Part shown: piece by piece, positions 1 through 5,955 of the stretch
How the letters are laid out: every line of letters begins with the position of its first letter
Numbering within the stretch: the first letter of the stretch is position 1
IMG/VR virus record: IMGVR_UViG_3300029374_000071
Span: 1-5,955 of that record
Length of the DNA: 5,955 bases
From: a virus
Strand: one strand, 5' to 3'
Translations under genes and position numbers: made by a program
Notes under the pieces: generated by a model
What the model saw: only the letters and a program-made list of their open reading frames with translations
What the model was told of the DNA's origin: nothing
Database searches by the model: none

Positions 1-103
1 GTTTCGCGCGTGCGCGCGCAATACCTTAGCATCAATCGATGCGACAGCCCCCGCGTTAGGGGGCGACGTCGCAAGGGGGCCGTTAACGGTAGTTAACGGC
101 CCC
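1..103. repeat. Left copy of the exact 103-nt terminal redundancy, identical to 5853-5955. The simplest reading is a circular genome of about 5,852 nt linearised with overlap.
   Basis: Direct comparison: 1-103 (gtttcgcgcgtgcgcgcgcaatacc...gtagttaacggcccc) matches 5853-5955 base for base. The content between the copies is one full complement of Microviridae genes. Confidence 0.85.
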
Positions 104-104
104 C
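29..104. promoter_or_regulatory. Cluster of three tandem GC-rich hairpins or nested palindromes. It is a candidate ssDNA origin or primosome-assembly-like element, or another cis-acting site.
   Basis: H0 29-42: GCATC-aatc-GATGC. H1: GCCCCC-gcgtta-GGGGGC at 47-64, flanked by GCGAC (41-45) and GTCGC (68-72). GCGACGTCGC at 63-72 is a perfect 10-bp palindrome. H2: a perfect 13-bp stem GGGGGCCGTTAAC (75-87) paired with GTTAACGGCCCCC (92-104) around a 4-nt loop ggta. It contains a nested palindrome CCGTTAACGG. This block is far more GC-rich than the rest of the genome. Confidence 0.5.
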
Positions 105-221
105 ACTCTACACACTCTTATACTCTGCTGCTCTTCTCTTTGGTGTCCCTGTGTTGGGAAACCTTAGCTTTGCGCGGAAGGGCTTTTATTTTGCTTTGTT
201 TGCTCTATCTATTACTTGTTG

Positions 222-236
222 TAGTAGTAGTAGTAG
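222..236. repeat. (TAG)5 trinucleotide microsatellite in the non-coding region.
   Basis: tagtagtagtagtag read directly from the sequence. Confidence 0.9.
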
Positions 237-240
237 GGAC

Positions 241-406
241 TGTTGAAACTGTTGAAAAGTCTAATTTTTAGCGTTGATACGCATATTTATCACCTTTTTT
301 CTTGTTTAAAGTTTTGTTGAAAACTTGTTGAATTGTTGAAAGTTCGTCAAATTGCCCTATTTCTTTGTGCAACTTTTTGTTGAAAACCTGTTGAAACTGT
401 TGAAAA
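241..406. repeat. Iteron array of eight copies of TGTTGAAA(A/C), with one variant TGTTGAAT. It is bounded by identical 18-mer dimer iterons TGTTGAAACTGTTGAAAA at 241-258 and 389-406.
   Basis: Copies at 241, 250, 315, 326 (TGTTGAAT), 334, 378, 389 and 398. The 13-mer TTTTGTTGAAAAC occurs twice, at 312-324 and 375-387. Spacing is 9-11 nt, about one helical turn. The array lies immediately after the VP2 stop at 408-410. Confidence 0.8.
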
Positions 407-407
407 C

Positions 408-1277
408 TTAATTTCCTGTATACGCGTCCATTATTTGATTAGGATTGATTGATGGATATGGTGTGATGTTTTTCCCACCTTTTTTCCAACTGTCTTTAAA
501 AGCTGATGCGGCTTTTCTGCCTGCACCTTTTACTGCGTTGCCCGCTTTATCTCCTGCGTCTCCAAGCTTGTCAAGCAAGTTGTTTGCCGCGTAGCTGTAA
601 TTGCTGACCTGTTTTGCACTTGACTGTGCTAGACTGCTTGCCGCTTCTTCAAAGCTCTTTGCTGAATGGTATTGTTTTGCGCTGGTGCTCTTTTTTGCCA
701 GTTCTAAGTATCTGTTTGCTAGCTCTGCAGTGTTGTTGCCGTACTCATACATAGCAGATACTGCTGCCGCCTGTGCGCTCTGCTGGTTGTAGTGTTGTGT
801 TCCGATGCTTGCGCTTGCTCCGCTTGGTGTTGCTGTAGCACCGTTGTTTGCTGCTAGTATAGGATTGATACCCGCCGCGATCATGTCCTTTACAGTGTCC
901 TGATATGCTGTTCCCCGCATTTCTTTTGCAAAGGCTCTTTCTGCCGCTGCTTCTGCGCTGTTGTACTTCTTTGCGCTTGCTTGGCTGCCTGCGTTCATGA
1001 CATTACTTAGAATTGAGCTTAAGTAGCTTAGCTTGTTTGCGTTGTTTACGCTTCCCTGATTGTTGTATGTTGTGATGCCTGTTGGTGTTCCAATTTGCGT
1101 TGAACCAATTTGCTGTGGCGCTGTTAGGCTTCCGGTTGTCGTTTCGCTTCCGGTTGTCGTTTCTTCTCCGGCTTTTTGACTGCTTTGTGCATTGCTTGTG
1201 TTCGTGTTTTGTATGATGCCTGAGATTAGACTAAGCCCCTGCATTATGTACGGCATCCATGATAAAAGTGTACCCAT
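408..1277 (-). CDS. DNA pilot / minor capsid protein (VP2-like, analogous to phiX174 H).
   Basis: The 289-aa ORF lies directly downstream of the major capsid gene, as in gokushoviruses. Its composition is low-complexity and rich in A/Q/S/G/N/T, typical of microvirus VP2/H pilot proteins. The Shine-Dalgarno GAAAGGAGAAA lies upstream, separated from the ATG by a hairpin. Assignment rests on position and composition, not on a recognised motif. Confidence 0.6.
   Translation of the reverse strand: MGTLLSWMPYIMQGLSLISGIIQNTNTSNAQSSQKAGEETTTGSETTTGSLTAPQQIGSTQIGTPTGITTYNNQGSVNNANKLSYLSSILSNVMNAGSQASAKKYNSAEAAAERAFAKEMRGTAYQDTVKDMIAAGINPILAANNGATATPSGASASIGTQHYNQQSAQAAAVSAMYEYGNNTAELANRYLELAKKSTSAKQYHSAKSFEEAASSLAQSSAKQVSNYSYAANNLLDKLGDAGDKAGNAVKGAGRKAASAFKDSWKKGGKNITPYPSINPNQIMDAYTGN
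1131..1166 (-). repeat. In-frame 18-nt tandem duplication inside VP2, encoding ETTTGS-ETTTGS.
   Basis: tccggttgtcgtttcgct at 1131-1148 and tccggttgtcgtttcttc at 1149-1166 on the plus strand. The protein shows ...GEETTTGSETTTGSLT... Confidence 0.85.
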
Positions 1278-1279
1278 TT

Positions 1280-1305
1280 AAAAATAGCCGGGTCTTTGCC
1301 CGGCT
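1280..1305 (-). terminator. Rho-independent-terminator-like hairpin between the VP1 stop and the VP2 start. It also sits between the VP2 Shine-Dalgarno and its ATG.
   Basis: Minus-strand reading: TAA(VP1 stop) GAAAGGAGAA AGCCGGG-caaaga-CCCGGCT ATTTTTAA ATG(VP2). There is a 7-bp GC stem, a 6-nt loop and a downstream T-run. Confidence 0.55.
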
Positions 1306-1315
1306 TTCTCCTTTC

Positions 1316-2965
1316 TTAGATTCTTTCGATGCCCGGGATGCTGTAGATAGGCATTTCCCGGAACCACGTTTCATTGAACCAGAAGTCACACAAGAACTGG
1401 TGTGATACTGCGGAAGTTACTGCGATAGTTCTATCGATGTTTTCACGTCCTTCCTGAATCCACTCCGCTGACAGTTTAGGCAGAGTGGAATAGTCGTCTG
1501 CATAGTGCCATGCATCTAGGCTTTTCTGATAGTTTGACCTCATTTCACCGGTTACATAAGAAGGTTTGTAGCGGTAATCCGCCCAAGCCTCTTGATAGCC
1601 AAAAATTTGGCTATCTTTTTCGCTTCCGTCTGCGTATATTTCTTGGTTATATACTGGCTGTTCGCCGAGGGCCGCAAGTCTCGGATCGTAGTACGTGAAT
1701 CGACCGCCGCGCGTCCATTTGGTTGCAAGGCCCTGTTGGTAGCTGTGTTCTACTCTCACTACTGCCAGCCCGATGATGTAACCGTACTCTGTGGCCGCAT
1801 AGTCTGCCATCTGCTTAGAACAGGTTGTCAGGCTATATGCTGCAGTGTTGCCCAGTGCCTGCCCGGTTGTGTTGTCCGTTTGGCTGGTCTGCACCACCTG
1901 GTTCACATTGATTGCAATGCGCTGCCCGCCGATGTATTCAGGAATTTGCAGACGGCTGTCCGGACTCGTTACGCCCCACGTTCCGGAAAGGAATTCTCTG
2001 TACCTCGTGCCGTTTCTGGCATCGGCCTCGAAGATGTGCTGTATAGCAATGGCCTGCCGCAAGTCGTTTATGGTCGTTTGTGCTCCTAAGGATTTATCTG
2101 ATGCTTTTTCCAGATTTGCGTACAGGTTGCCTTGTTTAATCTCGGTTCCTGCTGCTGTTGCTGCGCCACTTACTGTTGCAGGTCCGCCGCCTCCGCCGTC
2201 TATGCTTCCTGTTGCTCCACCATATCCTTCCATCCAGATTGTTGACTGTTGTTCTCTTCCGTCAAGTGTTCTCAGCTCTACCGGATACAGTCCTGACAGC
2301 GGCAGCGTTACCGGCTCTGTACTTTTCAAAGGCGAAGGTAAACACGATGTGAAATAATCGTGGAATTTGCCTGCGCGTGCCGGCTTCATTGCATATAACG
2401 TTGCTTCGTTCATGTTGGTCGTCTGTTCGATGGCGTTTGCATTTGCTGTTACATTGTTTGGGTTTTCGTTCGTGTCGCCTTCATCTGTTTTTTTGTATCC
2501 CAGCATAAGCGGCGCTTCAACATTTTCATCTCGAAACCACTCGTTGTATATCTTGCAGTATGCTCGTGCCGGCAAAGCGTTCACTTTCAGCGCGTTCGTT
2601 ACCTGTGTCGGTAGTCCGAAGTAGTCACCGATAGAGCCATTTGCAAGTCCACTTTCGCCGCCGATGGTGCACTTAGGTGTGGCATACTCTGTTTTCTCTT
2701 CCCAGTAGTCGTTATCATTTTCACCGAACATATTTTCAAAGTGATCCCATAAAAGTCTTGCAGGCACGAAGAAAAAATATGTGTCCATGTAGCAGTTATC
2801 CATGATAGGATAGATAGGAGTGCTCATACGAATTAGCCCGTTAAGCTGTACCCGTGCTGTGTCACCCGGGAGCACTTCATCCATATAGATGGGTACTAAC
2901 TCACCTTCGTTGATCGTCGTCAAAAGCTGATGACTACGGTCAAATTTCGATCGCGGTCTTTCCAT
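1316..2965 (-). CDS. Major capsid protein VP1 (Microviridae F-protein family, gokushovirus type).
   Basis: 549 aa. The N-terminal block KFDRSHQLLTTINEGELVPIYMDEVLPGDT...TPIYPIMDN...DTYFFFVPARLLW and the later block TINDLRQAIAIQHIFEADARNGTRY match conserved signatures I recall from Chlamydia-phage and SpV4-type VP1. A Gly-rich variable insert (GGATGSIDGGGGGPATVSGAATAAG) fits the hypervariable surface loop. The length is typical for gokushovirus VP1. Confidence 0.95.
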   Translation of the reverse strand: MERPRSKFDRSHQLLTTINEGELVPIYMDEVLPGDTARVQLNGLIRMSTPIYPIMDNCYMDTYFFFVPARLLWDHFENMFGENDNDYWEEKTEYATPKCTIGGESGLANGSIGDYFGLPTQVTNALKVNALPARAYCKIYNEWFRDENVEAPLMLGYKKTDEGDTNENPNNVTANANAIEQTTNMNEATLYAMKPARAGKFHDYFTSCLPSPLKSTEPVTLPLSGLYPVELRTLDGREQQSTIWMEGYGGATGSIDGGGGGPATVSGAATAAGTEIKQGNLYANLEKASDKSLGAQTTINDLRQAIAIQHIFEADARNGTRYREFLSGTWGVTSPDSRLQIPEYIGGQRIAINVNQVVQTSQTDNTTGQALGNTAAYSLTTCSKQMADYAATEYGYIIGLAVVRVEHSYQQGLATKWTRGGRFTYYDPRLAALGEQPVYNQEIYADGSEKDSQIFGYQEAWADYRYKPSYVTGEMRSNYQKSLDAWHYADDYSTLPKLSAEWIQEGRENIDRTIAVTSAVSHQFLCDFWFNETWFREMPIYSIPGIERI

Positions 2966-2990
2966 GCGCGGTACTTGCGCGAAATGCGAT

Positions 2991-3401
2991 TCACTGTTCC
3001 GGTTCGTTCTTCTTCACCTCTTCTTTCTTTTCTTCCTGCTTCGGCTGTTCGGTCTGTTTCAGCTGTTCCAGCGTTTCTGCTGCCGCCTGTGCCTTTTCTT
3101 GCATCGCCACAATGTCTTTAGGAAGGTTTTCCAGCGGCGTGCCTTCGGTGTAAATCGTGCTCTTTGCTTTGATGGAAATATCTCCGGCTTCCAGTCTCGC
3201 GATTGCGCTTGCAAGGTCGTAGCCCTCGCCTGCCTTCTGGATTTTTTCATAGATATTTTCATCTGGCTGTCGGATGTACTCCGTGGTGCCGTTTGCCCGC
3301 TTTACCGCCTTCCATGTCGGTGCCTTTTCGCTTCCGGCTTTGTTTGCCACTCTTTCGGTTGGCATTCCGTAGTAACGTATAAGGACGTTAGGATTTAGCA
3401 T
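2991..3401 (-). CDS. 136-aa highly charged protein immediately upstream of VP1. It may be an internal scaffolding or DNA-binding protein (VP3-like); the function call is tentative.
   Basis: A strong RBS TAAAGGAGAACATCA precedes the ATG at 3401. The start overlaps the stop of the upstream 84-aa ORF by 14 nt. The C-terminus is extremely K/E/Q-rich (EQLKQTEQPKQEEKKEEVKKNEPEQ). The ORF ends 25 nt before the VP1 start. Confidence 0.6.
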   Translation of the reverse strand: MLNPNVLIRYYGMPTERVANKAGSEKAPTWKAVKRANGTTEYIRQPDENIYEKIQKAGEGYDLASAIARLEAGDISIKAKSTIYTEGTPLENLPKDIVAMQEKAQAAAETLEQLKQTEQPKQEEKKEEVKKNEPEQ

Positions 3402-3642
3402 TGATGTTCTCCTTTAAGTCTACTAGACGTGCGATTTGCATTGGTGCTGCGTTGGTCATCGTGCCGTCGTCTGTGTCGAACTCGCCCAGCTCTACCAGGC
3501 TGATATCTTCGATTTCCTGTAGTTTGGAATCGTTTGCTTTCCACTTTGCAGTGCGGATTGCCTGTGCCCGGTTCTGCTGCAAGAACGGGTTGCTGTAGCC
3601 ATTCGTGATTGCATCGTGAAAACTGTAGAATTTCAGTGTCAT
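3388..3642 (-). CDS. 84-aa hypothetical protein, a small phage protein of unknown role.
   Basis: RBS AAAGAGGAATAAAATAT precedes the ATG at 3642. It is co-oriented with, and translationally overlaps, the downstream 136-aa ORF. I do not recognise a motif. Confidence 0.5.
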   Translation of the reverse strand: MTLKFYSFHDAITNGYSNPFLQQNRAQAIRTAKWKANDSKLQEIEDISLVELGEFDTDDGTMTNAAPMQIARLVDLKENINAKS

Positions 3643-3647
3643 ATTTT

Positions 3648-3753
3648 ATTCCTCTTTTTCAAGCTCTTCTGCGTCCTTCACGACTGCGTGGTAGATTTTG
3701 TCTACCATTGCAAGGATTTTCAGCAGGATGTTCATGGTTTCTTTAAAGTCCAT
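3648..3753 (-). CDS. Candidate 36-aa small ORF (MDFKETMNILLKILAMVDKIYHAVVKDAEELEKEE). It is not in the supplied track because it is under 60 aa.
   Basis: Hand translation of the minus strand. The ATG at 3753-3751 follows a textbook RBS, AAAAGGAGATGAACAG-ATG. The stop TAA at 3650-3648 lies 5 nt before the 84-aa ORF start. The sequence has a hydrophobic core and an acidic tail. Confidence 0.4.
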
Positions 3754-3906
3754 CTGTTCATCTCCTTTTATTGTTCCATGTGGAATATTACAGCCGGATA
3801 CCGCCCCGGCTTACCTTCGGTCGGACGTTGATATTTTTCGTCCGTTTTGCGGTCTGCGTAAATTTCCGCTGGTCGCCACGGCCTGCGCCGCTCCGATGTG
3901 ACATTT

Positions 3907-4293
3907 TTACACCCCCTTTCTGTAATATCCTTCGCGAACGTCTACGTGAACAAAATTTTTGTAGCATATTACCCCGCCGTAGTTTTTCATGTATTCGCTC
4001 GCGAATTTTGCTATTTCTTTTGGTGATACATCCTTTATCCTGATGTCTGCTGCCATTCCTTTACAATGATAGCTGTTCTTTGATTTTCCTACTTGTGTAT
4101 TCCACCATGGCGTTCTGTAGCCGCTGTTTACAATCACAGGTTTATTGAAGTTATCTCGAATCATTTCCAGTACTTCGAGTAGTTCTTGGCTTAACAGCAG
4201 TTCTTTTGCTCCGTCTTTGCTTGCCATTTCTTCCGCTGTGAAGTATGCTGAATGTATTTTTGTGTTTCTGTTGATGCAGTAGATTTTTCTCAT
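3907..4293 (-). CDS. Peptidase_M15-like (LAS-family zinc metallopeptidase), a putative peptidoglycan-hydrolysing endolysin.
   Basis: The block SGYRTPWWNTQVGKSKNSYHCKGMAADIRI...FVHVDV matches the His / Asp / His zinc-ligand arrangement and SGYR motif of Peptidase_M15_3 / VanY-like enzymes. The track ORF extends to 4323 only through an upstream TTG. The ATG at 4293-4291 has an excellent RBS (GGAAAAAGGAGCAATAGC-ATG), so I take 4293 as the start, giving 128 aa. Confidence 0.75.
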   Translation of the reverse strand: MRKIYCINRNTKIHSAYFTAEEMASKDGAKELLLSQELLEVLEMIRDNFNKPVIVNSGYRTPWWNTQVGKSKNSYHCKGMAADIRIKDVSPKEIAKFASEYMKNYGGVICYKNFVHVDVREGYYRKGV

Positions 4294-4368
4294 GCTATTG
4301 CTCCTTTTTCCGTATTGTACCAAGCAAACTTCTGGTTGTCAACTGGGAGTTTGCTTCTTTCATGTTTT

Positions 4369-4551
4369 TTATTCCTTTTCTGTGAAGTACATTGCCACTT
4401 TTTCTACTTTTTCCAATGAGTATAGGCCCGGGTTTCTTTTTGCGTATGCTTTCGCCTGTTGTTTTGCGTACTTTGGTTCAGCTGAAATCTTGAGCACGGT
4501 TCTTATCGTTCCGTCATCTTCGAAACTTCTGAGTTCATAGTAATGTGTCAT
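4369..4551 (-). CDS. 60-aa hypothetical protein, the first gene downstream of Rep.
   Basis: The ATG at 4551 is preceded by AGAAAGGAAGGCGGTCAAA and by a near-consensus promoter. The product MTHYYELRSFEDDGTIRTVLKISAEPKYAKQQAKAYAKRNPGLYSLEKVEKVAMYFTEKE has no motif I recognise. Confidence 0.5.
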   Translation of the reverse strand: MTHYYELRSFEDDGTIRTVLKISAEPKYAKQQAKAYAKRNPGLYSLEKVEKVAMYFTEKE

Positions 4552-4572
4552 TTTGACCGCCTTCCTTTCTGT

Positions 4573-4608
4573 GATTATATTCTATCATATTTTTGGGATT
4601 TTTTCAAG
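4573..4608 (-). promoter_or_regulatory. Sigma70-type promoter for the 60-aa ORF and downstream genes.
   Basis: Minus strand: TTGAAA (complement of 4607-4602), then the 17-nt spacer AAATCCCAAAAATATGA, then TAGAAT (complement of 4584-4579) with an upstream TG (extended -10), followed by ATAATCAC. It lies about 25 nt upstream of the ATG at 4551. Confidence 0.5.
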
Positions 4609-4640
4609 TTTTTTTCAAGTTTTTTTCAAGTTTTTTTCTG
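4598..4640. repeat. Three tandem 11-nt repeats TTTTTTTCAAG (minus strand CTTGAAAAAAA). These are phased A-tracts with 11-bp periodicity, each carrying a -35-like TTGAAA.
   Basis: CAAG recurs at 4605, 4616 and 4627 with T7 runs between. The array is flanked by further T/A runs (ctgaaaattttt). Confidence 0.85.
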
Positions 4641-4658
4641 AAAATTTTTCCTAGGATA

Positions 4659-4744
4659 GGAGCGCCGTTAGACTCCCGCCCGCAGGCGCTCCACTTGATA
4701 AGACTGGCTTGCCAGTCAGACTGTCGGGGCGCTCCGTCAGACTT
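4659..4744. repeat. GC-rich block of interleaved inverted and direct repeats immediately downstream of the Rep stop.
   Basis: GGAGCGCC (4659-4666) is the inverse complement of GGCGCTCC, which occurs twice (4685-4692 and 4728-4735). The 16-bp near-palindrome GACTGGCttGCCAGTC is at 4702-4717. AGACT occurs four times (4670, 4701, 4718, 4738). The 13-mers GCGCCGTTAGACT and GCTCCGTCAGACT form a direct-repeat pair. Confidence 0.7.
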
Positions 4745-4773
4745 TGCCGCCACTGCTCACCCTGCTTTATTGG

Positions 4774-5769
4774 CTATAAGGTTTCTTTCGGCTCTCTCCA
4801 TTTCTGTTTTTGCTTGTCTTTTTCCTTTTGTATCTCTAGGTATGTTGAGTACGGAACATTTGTGTTTTGCTCTAAGTTTACAAGGCTTAGCACTGCGTTT
4901 CTTCGTCTTTTGGCTCTTACTGTTCTTAGCTCGTCAGAATGGGCCTTGAAATAGCTTTCAGCGTCTTTGTTGGTATCCTTATCAAGAAGCTTATCAAAGT
5001 ATCTAGGCGGCCTTTTCTGCCGTCCTCCTGCGCATGTGATGTTGTCGGTTTCTAATATTTCGTTCATGTGCTCTTTTAGATACTCTTCTGCGATGCCTTT
5101 TGACATGATTCTAAATTCCGGTTCGCGGCCTTGCATCCAGTATTTTGAGCTCTGCTCTGCTCCGATTGCCTTTTTATTGACGTACTGTGTTACATATGAG
5201 TATGATCCTGGTGCCGCTGGGGAAAAGTCTACGAAGCCTTTTCCCCATATGTTCGTGAGCCATTCGCTTTTAAAGTATGCGTTGCCTTTCTGGTTTTTGT
5301 ACCACACTCCGTCCTCTGGTTTTAGTCCAAAAAAAATTCCGTGGTAGTGTGGCCTTTTTGTTCTGTCTCCATATTCTCCTGCTATGAAGTATTTTATCGG
5401 CTTTTTGTATGCCTTTCTGAGACGTTTTAGAAAAAGTTGTACGTCTCTTTTGCTCACTGTCTGTGATTGGATGCTCTGATAGCCTTTTAGGATTTCGCCA
5501 TAAGGTACGTGTTCCTCGTCATAAGTCATTGTAACGAAAATTACATCATCCCATCTTTTGGCTTCTAGTTCTATTCTCGTTGCCCATTGGTCTGCCATCT
5601 GTTTTCGGCAGTATTCACATTTCCCGCATGGTAACAATGCAAGGTTTCCTTTTTTTACGCCGTCCATGATTGTTTGTTCTAGGTTCTGTTTCTTTAGGTA
5701 CTTTAGACTTCCCCACATGGTTGGTTTTTTTGTGTTCATCTGGAAAACATTCGGATTTGTACATGGCAT
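4774..5769 (-). CDS. Rolling-circle replication initiation protein (Microviridae VP4 / phiX174 gpA family).
   Basis: 331 aa. RCR motif I is FVTMTY, motif II (HUH) is PHYHGIFFG and motif III is YVTQYVNKK, with two tyrosines spaced as in phiX gpA YVAKYVNK. A Cys cluster CGKCEYC is present. The length is typical of gokushovirus VP4. Confidence 0.95.
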   Translation of the reverse strand: MPCTNPNVFQMNTKKPTMWGSLKYLKKQNLEQTIMDGVKKGNLALLPCGKCEYCRKQMADQWATRIELEAKRWDDVIFVTMTYDEEHVPYGEILKGYQSIQSQTVSKRDVQLFLKRLRKAYKKPIKYFIAGEYGDRTKRPHYHGIFFGLKPEDGVWYKNQKGNAYFKSEWLTNIWGKGFVDFSPAAPGSYSYVTQYVNKKAIGAEQSSKYWMQGREPEFRIMSKGIAEEYLKEHMNEILETDNITCAGGRQKRPPRYFDKLLDKDTNKDAESYFKAHSDELRTVRAKRRRNAVLSLVNLEQNTNVPYSTYLEIQKEKDKQKQKWREPKETL

Positions 5770-5773
5770 AGGT

Positions 5774-5806
5774 TTGGCGCAAGTTCACTTGTCTATCTTG
5801 CGCCAA
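5774..5806. promoter_or_regulatory. Perfect 10-bp inverted repeat TTGGCGCAAG-N13-CTTGCGCCAA, ending 4 nt upstream of the Rep ATG.
   Basis: Arms at 5774-5783 and 5797-5806 are exact reverse complements. On the mRNA strand the 3' arm is followed by ACCT-ATG. No Shine-Dalgarno lies between the repeat and the start codon. Confidence 0.6.
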
Positions 5807-5838
5807 TTGACACCTCTCTTTCGTTTTTAATTTAAATT

Positions 5839-5872
5839 GCGTGCGCGTGCGCGTTTCGCGCGTGCGCGCGCA
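5839..5872. repeat. Two alternating purine-pyrimidine (Z-DNA-prone) tracts, GCGTGCGCGTGCGCG and CGCGCGTGCGCGCGCA, separated by TTT. The second tract is duplicated at window positions 5-20.
   Basis: Read directly from the sequence. The 10-bp perfect palindrome TGCGCGCGCA is at 11-20 and 5863-5872. Confidence 0.7.
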
Positions 5873-5955
5873 ATACCTTAGCATCAATCGATGCGACAGC
5901 CCCCGCGTTAGGGGGCGACGTCGCAAGGGGGCCGTTAACGGTAGTTAACGGCCCC
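5853..5955. repeat. Right copy of the 103-nt terminal redundancy. Its hairpin and Z-prone elements duplicate those at 1-103.
   Basis: Exact identity to 1-103. Confidence 0.85.

Follow-up and report, generated by a model that had tools for sequence, protein, structure and literature searches.

A portable GC-rich hairpin cassette in gokushoviruses and other rolling-circle replicons, a candidate single-strand element

The genome and its hairpin cassette

The stretch of DNA analysed here (the window, 5,955 nucleotides, positions 1 to 5,955 of IMG/VR record IMGVR_UViG_3300029374_000071) is a circular genome of 5852 nt with every gene on the - strand. Bases 1-103 recur as 5853-5955, and it is because the contig is a 5852-nt circle with overlapping ends that the hairpins described below are present twice. 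They are not an assembly artefact, since relatives whose contigs break at other points carry the element internally. The genome is that of a gut gokushovirus (Microviridae): a circle within the ~4.5-6 kb range of this group, encoding an F-type capsid protein (Phage_F, E = 1.5e-145), a Phage_ORF5 protein, a scaffold protein (Chlamy_scaf, a weak match) and an HUH Rep (REP_ORF2-G2P). Gokushovirus WZ-2015a is 87.5% identical to the window across 70% of its length. Gokushoviruses are the dominant microviruses of gut and environmental viromes. We know of no cis-element defined for the conversion of their incoming strand into duplex.

An earlier note on this DNA had pointed to three GC-rich hairpins at 29-104 as a possible complementary-strand origin. 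Two of them are real (75-104 and 40-73), the first with the perfect 13-bp stem that had been described (75-87/92-104); the third (29-42) is weak, and relatives do not preserve it. The true unit is larger, a ~220-nt GC-rich non-coding cassette of which the hairpins are the core (Table 1). Its strong alternating-GC palindrome falls just beyond the region first described. The palindrome arms are 18 nt long, and three of their pairs, G.T wobbles on the + strand, become A.C mismatches on the - strand. Folding of the whole cassette yields z -6.5 for the + strand (-57.8 kcal/mol) and z -5.0 for the - strand (-52.6 kcal/mol).

The cassette holds no conserved ORF. A small protein or VP8-like basic peptide read from the GC palindrome was rejected: the frame, ARARAKRARARNLN followed by a stop, lacks a usable start codon, and by eye neither start nor frame is kept in relatives. 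Rfam covariance models gave no match in the cassette (the best nearby was RybB with E = 0.7, its 21 bits falling short of the gathering score of 40), and a tRNA search found none. Elsewhere in the window, a second GC-rich block occupies 4650-4760, and ACTTGATAAG lies at 4693-4702.

Table 1. Coordinates of the cassette, its parts and the repeated contig end (window numbering)
Feature	Position	Strand	Description
Cassette main body	1-204	+	whole cassette = 5836-5852 + 1-~204 on the 5852-nt circle
Alternating-GC imperfect palindrome, 39 nt	5836-5874 (= 5836-5852 + 1-22)	+	ATTGCGTGCGCGTGCGCG-TTT-CGCGCGTGCGCGCGCAAT
Spacer with weak 5-bp hairpin	29-42	+	GCATC-AATC-GATGC; overlaps hairpin 2 base and competes with hairpin 2 outer stem
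Hairpin 2	40-73	+	(T)GCGACA-GCCCCC-GCGTTA-GGGGGC-GAC-GTCGC(A); bulged, 12-bp; sequence-conserved core of the element
Hairpin 1	75-104	+	perfect 13-bp stem, GGGGGCCGTTAAC (75-87) / GTTAACGGCCCCC (92-104), loop GGTA
Variable pyrimidine-rich spacer	105-141	+	poorly conserved between two lineages with full cassette
Conserved distal block, two small hairpins	142-186	+	GGTGTCCC-TGTGTT-GGGAAACC (142-163); CCTT...AAGG (162-181)
Second copy of bases 29-103	5881-5955	+	terminal redundancy of the circular contig; no separate element

Structure and conservation of the hairpins

Folding with DNA parameters, which the earlier note had proposed as a check, predicts hairpins 1 and 2 on both strands. For bases 20-115 the folding energy is -29.0 kcal/mol (+ strand) and -29.9 kcal/mol (- strand), with z ~-6.6 on each, and none of 200 dinucleotide shuffles was equally stable. 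As had been anticipated, the GC content of the hairpin region (0.63) is above that of the remaining genome (roughly 0.36-0.56), and no other 80-nt stretch of this genome is as stable as the hairpins (-29.9 kcal/mol against a mean of -7.1, sd 3.9). The element is likewise the most stable region in all carrier genomes, at -24 to -33 kcal/mol per 80 nt on a background of ~-7 +/- 3.5. The positive control, phiX174, has its most stable 80-nt window in the F-G intergenic region, the location of its n' (PriA) primosome assembly site, as the logic of the earlier note requires. The cassette resembles the phiX174 and G4 origins in being a stem-loop cluster in a non-coding gap, on what would here be the viral strand, but its stems are much more GC-rich and its two hairpins reach -29 kcal/mol, against -17 for the best phiX174 window. 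It has no similarity to phiX174 or other cultured microviruses, and shares with phiX174 only a 10-nt word expected by chance.

Hairpin 1 is conserved in shape: between lineages its stem has an entirely different sequence, and the pairing is always intact. A MAFFT alignment of the whole region put hairpin 1 out of register, and the stems were therefore extracted by pairing and anchored at the invariant 2-nt linker that joins them to hairpin 2 (AA on the + strand, TT on the - strand). Five of ten pairs have changed on both sides, 98.9% of cells are paired and none of 500 shuffles matches the score, counts that are biased towards structure because the stems were chosen by pairing. At one position all four Watson-Crick pairs are seen. 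Wobble pairs are nearly absent despite this extensive covariation, as expected of DNA, not RNA, pairing.

Hairpin 2 is conserved in sequence. On the - strand its core reads CCCC-TTGCGWC-N2-3-GCCCC-loop-GGGGC-TGYCGC; stems and bulge are kept across very distant carriers, while the loop is free in length (3-8 nt) and in sequence. On the gene-sense strand the loop is TAACGC, TAGCGC or TACGC in some lineages, and AATCAT, AGCTCA, GATAT or ATTCGGGT in others. This combination of fixed stems and free loop points to a hairpin-specific ligand and not to a dimeric duplex-binding site. The start of type I-C CRISPR repeats is similar to hairpin 2; mimicry of such a repeat is speculation. The distal block is 88-91% identical between lineages, its small hairpins are predicted in the fold, and a compensatory T-A to C-G change can be seen by eye (GGTTTCCC/GGGACACC versus GGTTCCCC/GGGGCACC). 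The hairpin structures are thus under selection, which the earlier note had argued from local GC content: hairpin 1 compensates strongly and hairpin 2 keeps its sequence.

The same comparison goes against the 29-42 hairpin. It is missing from the minimum-energy fold and appears in the centroid only, as an alternative to the outer stem of hairpin 2, and in close relatives its pairing is broken (GCATC..GATAC, ACATC..GATGC). In some lineages the spacer sequence ATCGATWGATGCTAA is retained. Cruciform extrusion had been suggested from the nested palindromes CCGTTAACGG and GCGACGTCGC. These are specific to the window genome, relatives having CCGTCAAAC...GTTGACGG and GCGACAGCG at these sites; since they are not conserved, that argument fails.

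Distribution among relatives and other replicons

The cassette is present or absent among genomes whose Reps are ~95% identical. Five close relatives (L001, L003, L004, L005 and L010) miss exactly window 1-198, and cassette-free relatives show a direct junction of ...AAGTAATATATAAAG to AAAAAAGAAAGAGAGGTG. It is lacking in roughly half of the nearest relatives and in the greater part of the wider lineage. The idea that each genome has some strong GC hairpin module, for which the 4650-4760 block might substitute, was rejected: most relatives have no 80-nt window at or below -20 kcal/mol. It follows that the cassette is accessory. An essential complementary-strand origin, the strongest reading of the original proposal, is ruled out by the relatives without the cassette, in the closest group and the wider lineage alike, which have no window below -20 kcal/mol; lacking a comparable structure, they must start the complementary strand otherwise, so that the benefit of the cassette is unproven.

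Different lineages carry the cassette at three different non-coding sites: ~230 nt past VP2 and immediately upstream of Rep in the window lineage, directly after the VP2 stop in a lineage with ~80% Rep identity, and just downstream of Rep in other gokushovirus lineages. The second and third sites raise the question of a transcription terminator or a stabiliser of mRNA 3' ends, acting as RNA hairpins at the ends of VP2 or Rep transcription units. Indeed, the cassette of the ~80%-Rep lineage stands exactly where its relatives have a canonical terminator, GGGGGATGGCAAAACATCCCCC-TTTTTT, an arrangement that fits a transcriptional role too, and in gokushoviruses the cassette and the genes always share one orientation. 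In the inovirus L185 two + strand ORFs precede the element, which occupies a convergent gap. Yet a T/U run follows none of the hairpins (beyond hairpin 1 the gene-sense strand continues with TTGCG and the + strand with ACTCTAC), and a terminator scan that misses them finds canonical hairpin-plus-T-run terminators elsewhere in the same genomes (1286-1305 in the window). At the window-lineage site, cassette-free relatives have no terminator at all. The element is, moreover, antisense to all or nearly all genes in L174, L189, L193, L214 and the inoviruses; the scarcity of wobble pairs in hairpin 1 does not suit an RNA hairpin; and a generic terminator would not be limited to rolling-circle replicons. 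We therefore consider a terminator or stabiliser very unlikely.

All identifiable carriers of the hairpin 2 core are rolling-circle replicons, with three unrelated families of initiators. They comprise gokushoviruses, other small Rep circles, one Rep_1 replicon and inoviruses of Xanthomonadaceae. The initiators are PF23343 in gokushoviruses, L174, L189 and L230, and Rep_1 in L214; L185 and its relatives encode Rep_trans together with Zot and a gene-V protein. In these inoviruses a related hairpin 2 lies in the intergenic gap that follows the Zot (gene I) homologue, and a REP-like GTAG...CTAC hairpin adjoins it. Among 241 million metagenome records the core gave only 30 matches, each single-copy and on a small contig, and there was no match in the plasmid collection. 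The distal block is narrower still, matching only 16 IMG/VR contigs, all gokushoviruses; in 596 Gb of bacterial genomes it had no extended match, only two bare 22-nt matches attributable to chance. No transposase is associated with the cassette.

The occurrence of one element with three families of initiators and in two phage families points to an exchange of non-coding replication modules among ssDNA replicons, like that of single-strand origins (sso) among plasmids. It could also mean that the element is a selfish passenger spread by recombination, or that it serves some other single-strand role, as a decoy or shield against nucleases or defence systems or as an aid to condensation or packaging. 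Its patchy distribution, the exchange across phage families and the frequent partial deletions (L008, L013, L014, L063) would suit such readings, as would the similar total lengths of genomes with and without the cassette, as if it were traded against accessory DNA. They fit less well with the strong purifying selection on pairing, and on the sequence of hairpin 2, over large distances. A passenger would also have to spread with neither a transposase nor copies in host chromosomes (distal block, 596 Gb), and a shared packaging signal is unlikely because the packaging mechanisms of inoviruses and microviruses are unrelated. On balance we regard this group of explanations as unlikely.

The absence of genomic copies (distal block in 596 Gb, core in the metagenome records) also led us to reject a host REP/MITE or a prophage junction. 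REP/BIME and IS200/IS605-derived elements are likewise short, GC-rich, imperfect intergenic palindromes that form hairpins in ssDNA, but the cassette is single-copy, has no bacterial-genome copies of its distal block and no transposase. Temperate gokushoviruses have a XerCD/dif-like attachment site, a 28-nt motif in a non-coding region (PMC7062461). Such a site was ruled out here: compared with the dif sites of E. coli and B. subtilis, the cassette matched at no more than 16-17/28, the level of shuffled sequences, and no prophage copy was found (distal block, 596 Gb).

Strand polarity and possible role

The polarity of the element tracks the T-rich strand, as defined at four-fold sites, and not gene direction. 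The T-rich strand carries the same form in gokushoviruses, whose genes are on the opposite strand, and in L174, L189, L193, L214 and the inoviruses, whose genes are on that strand. Polarity relative to the T-rich strand is constant in five of five informative lineages, the truly independent ones being few (about five). Alternating-GC palindromes related to that of the window occur in 75 distinct microvirus contigs; 70 of the 75 have the GAAAC-centred form on the A-rich strand, and none has it on the T-rich strand. G.T wobbles in the palindrome are confined to the T-rich strand, the imperfections on the gene-sense strand being 144 A.C and 2 G.T. We infer that the T-rich strand is the one that is displaced and single-stranded.

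These observations bear on a function in the double-stranded replicative form, where the cassette might extrude a cruciform, adopt Z-DNA or bind gyrase or a nucleoid protein, and so tune supercoiling for nicking by the initiator. Z-DNA and cruciforms are classically formed by an alternating (CG/CA)n tract, here with arms of 18-32 nt, the stem sequences of hairpin 2 are identical on the two strands, and the element is limited to small supercoiled rolling-circle replicons, often within ~50-300 nt of the putative nick hairpin described below. A duplex element should, however, ignore orientation, whereas polarity here follows strand composition; neither a duplex nor a cruciform function predicts imperfections so one-sided (144 versus 2), or a hairpin 1 that keeps its pairing and not its sequence. 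We judge such a function quite unlikely.

Our tentative preference, which falls short of an even chance, is for a cis-element that rolling-circle (ssDNA) replicons carry as a portable accessory. It would act on the single strand, like the single-strand origins of plasmids and the minus-strand origins of Ff and G4, and would most likely help the host to start copying the incoming strand. The T-rich strand (the + strand of the window) would fold into a row of stem-loops, namely the alternating-GC hairpin, hairpin 2, the two-base linker, hairpin 1 and the two small hairpins, which would remain folded while SSB coats the remaining strand. A host enzyme (RNA polymerase, a primase or a primosome of the PriA type) would recognise hairpin 2, with hairpin 1 as a structural partner, and the recruited enzyme would lay the primer for complementary-strand synthesis. 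The cassette would thereby raise the efficiency of the ssDNA-to-duplex step in particular hosts, and could be exchanged between replicons without being strictly required. The structure of the cassette, the selection on it, its behaviour as a cassette, its confinement to rolling-circle replicons and its constant polarity relative to strand composition are shown, whereas binding of a host enzyme and priming are what we infer. Of the original suggestion of a complementary-strand origin, the single-strand behaviour is thus retained (a core found in rolling-circle replicons only, a polarity set by the T-rich strand) and an essential role is given up.

The comparison with plasmids is close. Plasmid sso are structured non-coding regions of ~160-300 nt on the displaced strand, orientation-dependent and flexible in position relative to rep; they are exchanged as cassettes between replicons with different initiators, limit host range, and improve lagging-strand initiation without being essential (PMC5703833). 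The present cassette is like ssoA, ssoU, ssoT and ssoW in size, structure, cassette behaviour, dispensability, independence of Rep and fixed polarity: it is non-coding, lies within the ~150-300 nt of an sso at ~220 nt, is strongly folded, and occurs at variable sites with different Reps while being dispensable at ~95% Rep identity. It differs in that it has no match in the plasmid collection, its carriers are mainly phages, and it shows no CS-6-like loop signal. Origins of the ssoA type have an RSB sequence and, in a terminal loop, a conserved CS-6 hexamer with the consensus TAGCGT; comparison of the hairpin 2 loop with CS-6 led us to reject this signal, and since the loop is variable, a CS-6-like signal is no feature of the family.

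Among phages, the minus-strand origin of Ff (M13/f1/fd) consists of two adjacent hairpins, with -35- and -10-like hexamers in their stems, recognized by RNA polymerase on SSB-coated viral DNA. The gap that carries hairpin 2 in the Xanthomonadaceae inoviruses is the place of the Ff origins. The cassette, too, is a pair of neighbouring stable hairpins, situated in the principal intergenic region of its ssDNA phage. It differs from the Ff origin in lacking sequence similarity and in being accessory and not universal; a linear promoter scan of 1-204 picked up no -35/-10-like hexamers. In a G4-type primase origin the stem-loops have the primase start trinucleotide CTG on their 3' side. CTG is found at 125-127 and 128-130 of the window and nowhere within ~28 nt in the ~80%-Rep lineage; this trinucleotide 3' of hairpin 1 is not conserved among cassette relatives, and the trinucleotide preference of primase varies among bacteria. 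A precedent is that of the reekeekee- and roodoodooviruses, for which intergenic hairpins were proposed as negative-strand initiation sites, although the authors could not certify this (PMC9865509). There, too, conserved intergenic hairpins with compensatory substitutions in uncultured Microviridae led to the same hypothesis (PMC9865509), but those hairpins are clade-wide, whereas the cassette is multi-hairpin, variably present within a species-level cluster and common to different phage families. As a small, synthesisable candidate for which natural plus/minus genome pairs exist, and which offers one hairpin conserved in sequence (2) and one in shape only (1), it lends itself to experiment; if exchanged, it may also mark host range.

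A further alternative is that the cassette is the viral-strand (plus) origin itself, the site nicked by the phage Rep. HUH initiators typically nick at GC-rich stem-loops beside rep genes, and in small 4.5-kb microviruses the GC palindrome lies within the 3' end of rep. Against this, the cassette is missing from most close relatives with nearly identical Reps, it is common to three unrelated initiator families, and the window has a better candidate: the hairpin at 5773-5805 is universally conserved and covarying, and its loop carries a phiX-like ACTTG motif. We regard a plus origin at the cassette as highly improbable, and 5773-5805 as the putative Rep nick site. For the Rep_1 replicon L214, a nick site proposed from CTTGATA, which would have fixed its displaced strand, was dropped, its single occurrence matching chance expectation.

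The identity of the packaged strand touches a textbook rule, according to which the virion strand of microviruses is gene-sense (positive-sense). All genes of the window being on the - strand, this rule would make the virion strand the complement of the strand that the earlier note had read as such. The phiX-like nick motif and the strand composition suggest the opposite, that the window's + strand, antisense to the genes, is packaged, and so favour the earlier choice of strand. Composition alone is not decisive, because the coding strand of the cultured phage phiMH2K is likewise A-rich, and our polarity argument, which rests on the T-rich strand being the packaged one, conflicts with the positive-sense assignment of gokushoviruses. 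The combined proposal of a new family of portable single-strand origins (Microviridae, Inoviridae and Rep_1 replicons) whose carriers nick, displace and package the strand complementary to mRNA is possible but rather doubtful.

If it held, the genome of carrier gokushoviruses would be negative-sense ssDNA, which goes against the family description, and the primer RNA laid at the cassette would have mRNA polarity and be directed towards the genes (Rep in the window lineage). Antisense packaging would probably extend to most gut and environmental gokushoviruses with A-rich coding strands. Our polarity analysis in this way questions the positive sense assumed for many uncultured microviruses, and confirmation would affect strand-specific virome methods and mutation-spectrum studies as well as the family description. 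The four-fold T-skew, taken together with the position of the phiX-like nick hairpin, provides a simple computational handle on polarity.

Structure and selection of the hairpin region

Bases 1-103 of the window are identical to bases 5853-5955, so that the contig represents a circle of 5852 nt. All its long ORFs lie on the minus strand; in GenBank its nearest record, at 87.5% identity across 70% of the genome, is the human-faecal Gokushovirus WZ-2015a. The main non-coding region, which spans the contig junction from the end of the VP2-like gene (408) to the start of Rep, the replication initiator (5769), contains the GC-rich hairpins. Three had been described in the earlier note, of which two are recovered: the perfect 13-bp stem (hairpin 1) and a bulged hairpin, GCGACA-GCCCCC-GCGTTA-GGGGGC-GAC-GTCGC (hairpin 2). 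The third, at 29-42, has 5 bp, overlaps hairpin 2, appears only as an alternative in the centroid and is not kept in relatives. The nested palindromes also described are found in this genome only, relatives being different. The DNA fold of bases 20-115 reaches -29.0 kcal/mol on the plus strand and -29.9 on the minus strand; shuffled sequences give about -14 +/- 2.3 (z about -6.6), none of 200 folding equally well. Local GC content is 0.63, versus roughly 0.36-0.56 elsewhere in the window, and the region is indeed the most stable 80-nt stretch of the genome. The original observation was largely correct; it overlooked a larger unit containing both hairpins, a GC-rich non-coding cassette of about 220 nt. 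On the plus strand this consists of an alternating-GC palindrome, a spacer, hairpin 2, a linker, hairpin 1, a variable spacer and a distal block. The whole cassette folds at -57.8 kcal/mol on the plus strand (z -6.5) and -52.6 on the minus strand (z -5.0).

Features of the window (positions beyond 5852 continue at base 1 of the circle)
Feature	Position	Strand	Remark
F-type major capsid protein	1316-2965	-	Phage_F, E = 1.5e-145
Scaffold-like protein		-	long ORF
ORF5 protein		-	long ORF
M15 peptidase		-	long ORF
Rep, family PF23343	4774-5769	-
Candidate nick hairpin TTGGCGCAAG-TTCACTTGTCTAT-CTTGCGCCAA	5773-5805	+	conservation, covariation
39-nt alternating-GC palindrome	5836-5874 (= 5836-5852 + 1-22)	+	first cassette part
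Hairpin 2	40-73	+	bulged
Two-base linker	between hairpins 2 and 1	+	invariant
Hairpin 1	75-87/92-104	+	perfect 13-bp stem, loop GGTA
Conserved block with two small hairpins	142-186	+	last cassette part

The stems of hairpin 1 are almost wholly different between lineages (among them GGGGGCCGTTAAC, GGGGCCGTCAA, GGGGCCGCAAA, GGGGGGGCGCAGA, GGGGGTCGCAAG, GGGGTTGACT, GGGGGGACGAAAAACA, GGGGGAGACC, GGGGCTGAC and GGGGGTAGGCC), and in every lineage the 3' arm is the complement. The proposal that selection acts on structure is borne out: 98.9% of cells are paired and 5 of 10 pairs show two-sided changes, as counted on register-true stem extracts whose arms were picked by pairing, which biases the figures toward structure. 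All four Watson-Crick pairs occur at one position, and none of 500 shuffles reached the covariation score. Wobble pairs are nearly absent, which fits DNA pairing better than RNA pairing. Hairpin 2 is conserved in the sequence of its stems and bulge (92.6% of cells paired, one covarying pair, a persistent T.C non-pair in 11 of 19 sequences), while its loop is free in length (3-8 nt) and sequence. Fixed stems around a free loop argue for a hairpin read by a sequence-specific ligand, and not for a dimer site on duplex DNA.

Presence, absence and distribution of the cassette

The regions upstream of Rep were compared in 69 related genomes gathered via Rep and circularised. Among genomes with 94-96% identical Rep, the whole GC-rich block is present in the window, L002, L006, L007, L009, L062, L064 and L066 and cleanly missing from L001, L003, L004, L005, L010, L065 and L067, the gap corresponding to window 1-198. 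L012 has a diverged copy, and deletion remnants persist in L008, L013 and L014. A scan of 47 circular genomes showed that carriers reach -24 to -33 kcal/mol per 80 nt, while most cassette-free genomes contain no 80-nt window at or below -20 kcal/mol anywhere, the background being about -7 +/- 3.5. The cassette is not needed, and it is excluded as an essential origin. A second GC-rich structured block (about 4650-4760), considered as a stand-in where the cassette is missing, fails across the 47-genome set.

This second block is non-coding and lies just downstream of the Rep stop codon. It carries 8-bp inverted repeats (GGAGCGCC/GGCGCTCC), a GACTGGC-TT-GCCAGTC hairpin and four AGACT direct repeats, and is variably present among close relatives; the stretch 4622-4777 is about 90% identical to sequence of pig-faeces Microviridae that are unrelated in other respects. 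It may be a further exchangeable cis-module, perhaps origin-related.

The cassette is not confined to one site. In a lineage whose Rep is about 80% identical, the VP2 stop codon is followed at once by a related cassette, at a point where most genomes of that lineage have a textbook terminator, GGGGGATGGCAAAACATCCCCC-TTTTTT; it substitutes for the terminator in the same orientation. This suggested a terminator or 3'-stabiliser, but the cassette has no T-run, is antisense to genes in other carriers and is restricted to ssDNA replicons. Lineages whose VP1 is about 40% identical have the hairpin module at a third site, just downstream of Rep. In the related contig L052 (about 1740-1790, gene-sense strand), a different hairpin (GGATGCTCACGACATTTATGTCGGGAGCATCC) takes the place of the alternating-GC palindrome and hairpin 1 is extended to 16 bp; the sub-elements of the cassette thus seem to be exchangeable themselves.

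Searches with patterns for the individual parts extended this distribution. A GAAAC-centred palindrome pattern found 72 matches in 2.9 million viral contigs, about 66 of them microvirus-sized and from many samples. In 4.4-4.7-kb genomes the 3' end of rep contains the GC palindrome, and another GC hairpin comes after it. In these environmental microviruses (L070-L136, e.g. L073 at 1232 and L088 at 3956), the palindrome encodes an Arg/Ala-rich Rep tail (..TRARARNAHARAKSKSKSV before the stop), and a nested GC hairpin, CGTTTGACGACGTGCGCC-TTT-GGCGCTCGTCAAACG, lies directly 3' of the rep stop codon; the window Rep has a similar RAKRRRNAV motif, for which ordinary sequence codes. With a two-hairpin core pattern, the true architecture was recovered in about 40 microvirus contigs; another thirty-odd matches, in larger phage contigs rich in GC, lack the stems and are due to chance.

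Filamentous phages account for four isolate-derived contigs in which hairpin 2 is convincing; they encode Zot, a Rep_trans initiator and a gene-V-type ssDNA-binding protein, and their relatives include Stenotrophomonas phage PSH1 and Xanthomonas Xf109. In stems and bulge, their hairpin 2 equals that of some small Rep circles (L185 = L189, L165 = L193), and a BLAST search of GenBank phages with the inovirus element returned a human gokushovirus. The Xanthomonadaceae inoviruses also carry REP/SMAG-like hairpins, GTAGGGGC-NNN-GCCCCTAC, with GTAG...CTAC ends (L191 at 6566, 6885 and 7757, three copies; L165 at 8737; L185 at 904), one of them 10 nt from the shared hairpin 2. The full-hairpin pattern occurs in only 30 stretches among 241 million metagenome records, all single-copy and in contigs of 1.4-9.8 kb. 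The carriers identified comprise gokushoviruses, circles of 5-6 kb whose Rep is of family PF23343 (L174, L189, L230), and a 9.8-kb replicon, L214, in which two Rep_1 genes occur. Across 596 Gb of bacterial genomes nothing truly matches the cassette-specific distal block, and the cassette matches none of 72,556 plasmids. In these sequence comparisons the element keeps to rolling-circle, single-stranded replicons, whatever their initiator. A role as viral-strand origin is excluded, the cassette being dispensable and its carriers having three initiator families. Four GenBank gokushovirus records hold the cassette, unannotated, and no prior account was found of it, of its coming and going among close genomes or of its sharing between phage families.

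Polarity of the element and a candidate viral-strand origin

The element is co-oriented with the genes in all gokushoviruses and inverted in the inoviruses, L174, L189, L193, L230 and L214. This seemed fatal to a strand-specific function until strand composition was considered. ssDNA phages favour NNT codons, a known preference ascribed to cytosine deamination in the single strand (PMC3278643). The gene-strand A/T ratio at four-fold sites is 0.11 in phiX174, 0.49 in Chp2, 0.43 in SpV4, 0.51-0.58 in the inoviruses, and 0.51, 0.28, 0.07 and 0.14 in L174, L189, L193 and L214. In the window (408-1277, 1316-2965, 2991-3401, 4774-5769) it is 3.2 (A 47.5%, T 14.9%); this A-rich coding strand is opposite to those of phiX174, Chp2, SpV4 and the inoviruses and like that of the cultured phage phiMH2K. 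In all five informative lineages (L230 is neutral), it is the T-rich strand on which the element reads GCGACA-GCCCCC-loop-GGGGGC-NNN-GTCGC-AA-GGGG..., as it does on the window's plus strand. Of 75 distinct palindrome carriers, 70 have the GAAAC-centred form on their A-rich strand, the other 5 being neutral, with no contrary case, and the rule also holds for L084, L092, L115 and L116, whose genes are reversed. Palindrome imperfections on the gene-sense strand are 144 A.C versus 2 G.T, one per copy being forced by the search pattern; read on the T-rich strand, these positions form G.T wobbles, which are tolerated. Neither the fixed polarity nor these one-sided imperfections are predicted by a role in the duplex (cruciform, Z-DNA or supercoil sink).

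Just upstream of the Rep start codon lies a 10-bp, covarying hairpin that is universally conserved in L001-L069. Its stems vary (TTGGCGCAAG/CTTGCGCCAA, CCGGCACAAG/CTTGTGCCGG, CTGGCCCAAG/CTTGGGCCAG) around an invariant 13-nt plus-strand loop, TTCACTTGTCTAT, which resembles the phiX174 origin core ACTTG/AT and the Chp2 hairpin loop. It is a candidate for the viral-strand origin or nick site, with a role in Rep translation as the alternative. Of 159 microvirus genomes with an A-rich coding strand, 136, spanning at least six lineages, have a hairpin (9 bp or more) with NCTTGWY in its loop on the non-coding strand, and none has one on the coding strand. The phiX174 origin, CAACTTG/ATATT, is annotated at 4306 on the viral strand; in Chp2 the coding strand bears a homologous hairpin of 14-16 bp (loop TCTACTTGATC), and in SpV4 the coding strand bears AACTTGATAAG. 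A 10-mer identical to that of SpV4, ACTTGATAAG, lies at 4693-4702 on the window's plus strand, in the second GC-rich block. The nick-like motif therefore follows the T-rich strand, an argument weakened by the stems being CAAG/CTTG palindromes. Polarised rare four-fold variants on the coding strand, in small counts, are G>A 29 versus C>T 5 and C>A 9 versus G>T 3 in the window lineage; in a sister lineage, also in small counts, they are C>A 7 versus G>T 0 and G>A 3 versus C>T 4. Together, nick-like motif, element polarity, one-sided imperfections and mutation spectrum suggest that the strand nicked, displaced and packaged in these gokushoviruses could be the complement of the mRNA-sense strand. 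We give this about an even chance, as a lead and not a result: it conflicts with the textbook description of the family, and phiMH2K shares the A-rich coding strand. The strand polarity is the most surprising item of this analysis and is directly testable.

Between VP2 and the cassette (230-410) lie direct-repeat clusters with about 9-10 copies of TGTTGAAA (TTTCAACA gene-sense), conserved even at about 40% VP1 identity (L081, L123); they resemble iterons at which Rep or a host factor might act. Amid them is a small covarying palindrome, GCGTATCAACGC in the window and AACGTAGTAACGTT in the sister lineage. At 222-236, a (TAG)5 run (CTACTACTACTACTAC gene-sense) followed by AACAAGTAATA is conserved in all relatives. 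This element reads TACTACGAC in many of them, matching the pMV158-type nick sequence; in L146/L155-type lineages, CTACAACAAGTTAATATA adjoins the other end of the hairpin module, inverted.

Mode of action and neighbouring loci

The interpretation best supported is that the cassette would act on the single-stranded genome as a start site recognised by the host for complementary-strand synthesis, in the manner of plasmid single-strand origins (sso) and of the Ff and G4 minus origins. It is favoured by the stability of the structure, selection on pairing and a sequence-conserved recognition hairpin; by confinement to rolling-circle replicons with unrelated initiators; by a polarity tied to the presumed single strand; and by its behaviour as a cassette, its variable location and its dispensability. 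Such traits are the ones given for sso elements (PMC5703833). Against it, most relatives manage without the cassette, and the strand assignment is an inferred one. The complementary-strand origin originally proposed is partly supported: a function at the single-strand level is well supported, and an essential role is excluded, most relatives having no cassette. Priming itself is a plausible hypothesis, and a selfish or otherwise-acting single-strand element is possible.

Plasmid sso elements are closest in function, but by its sequence the cassette falls outside ssoA: its loop signal lacks conservation and no plasmid matches it. The Ff minus origin likewise has two hairpins side by side, and in the inoviruses the element is also similarly located; likeness to the G4 and phiX sites is limited to general logic. 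In favour of the start-site reading, the stablest window of phiX174 falls in the region where its known primosome site lies. Counting against that reading, comparison with 72,556 plasmids and phiX174 revealed no sequence relation to characterised origins, and neither a conserved CTG (in the relatives compared) nor promoter-like boxes (in a promoter scan) were found at the cassette. Olo Ndela et al. (PMC9865509) proposed the same role for clade-wide hairpins of other microviruses, noting that it could not be certified.

Elsewhere in the window, VP1 has a hypervariable loop at 2075-2300. Close relatives have unrelated sequence in place of the segment 3905-4765 (M15 peptidase gene, 60-aa ORF, second non-coding block), which makes it an accessory-gene hot spot. 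A strong promoter-like site (4342-4314) lies upstream of the M15 peptidase gene, and three tandem copies of an 11-nt repeat, TTTTTTCAAGT, at 4590-4633 lie beside two promoter-like minus-strand sites (4607-4579 and 4618-4589).
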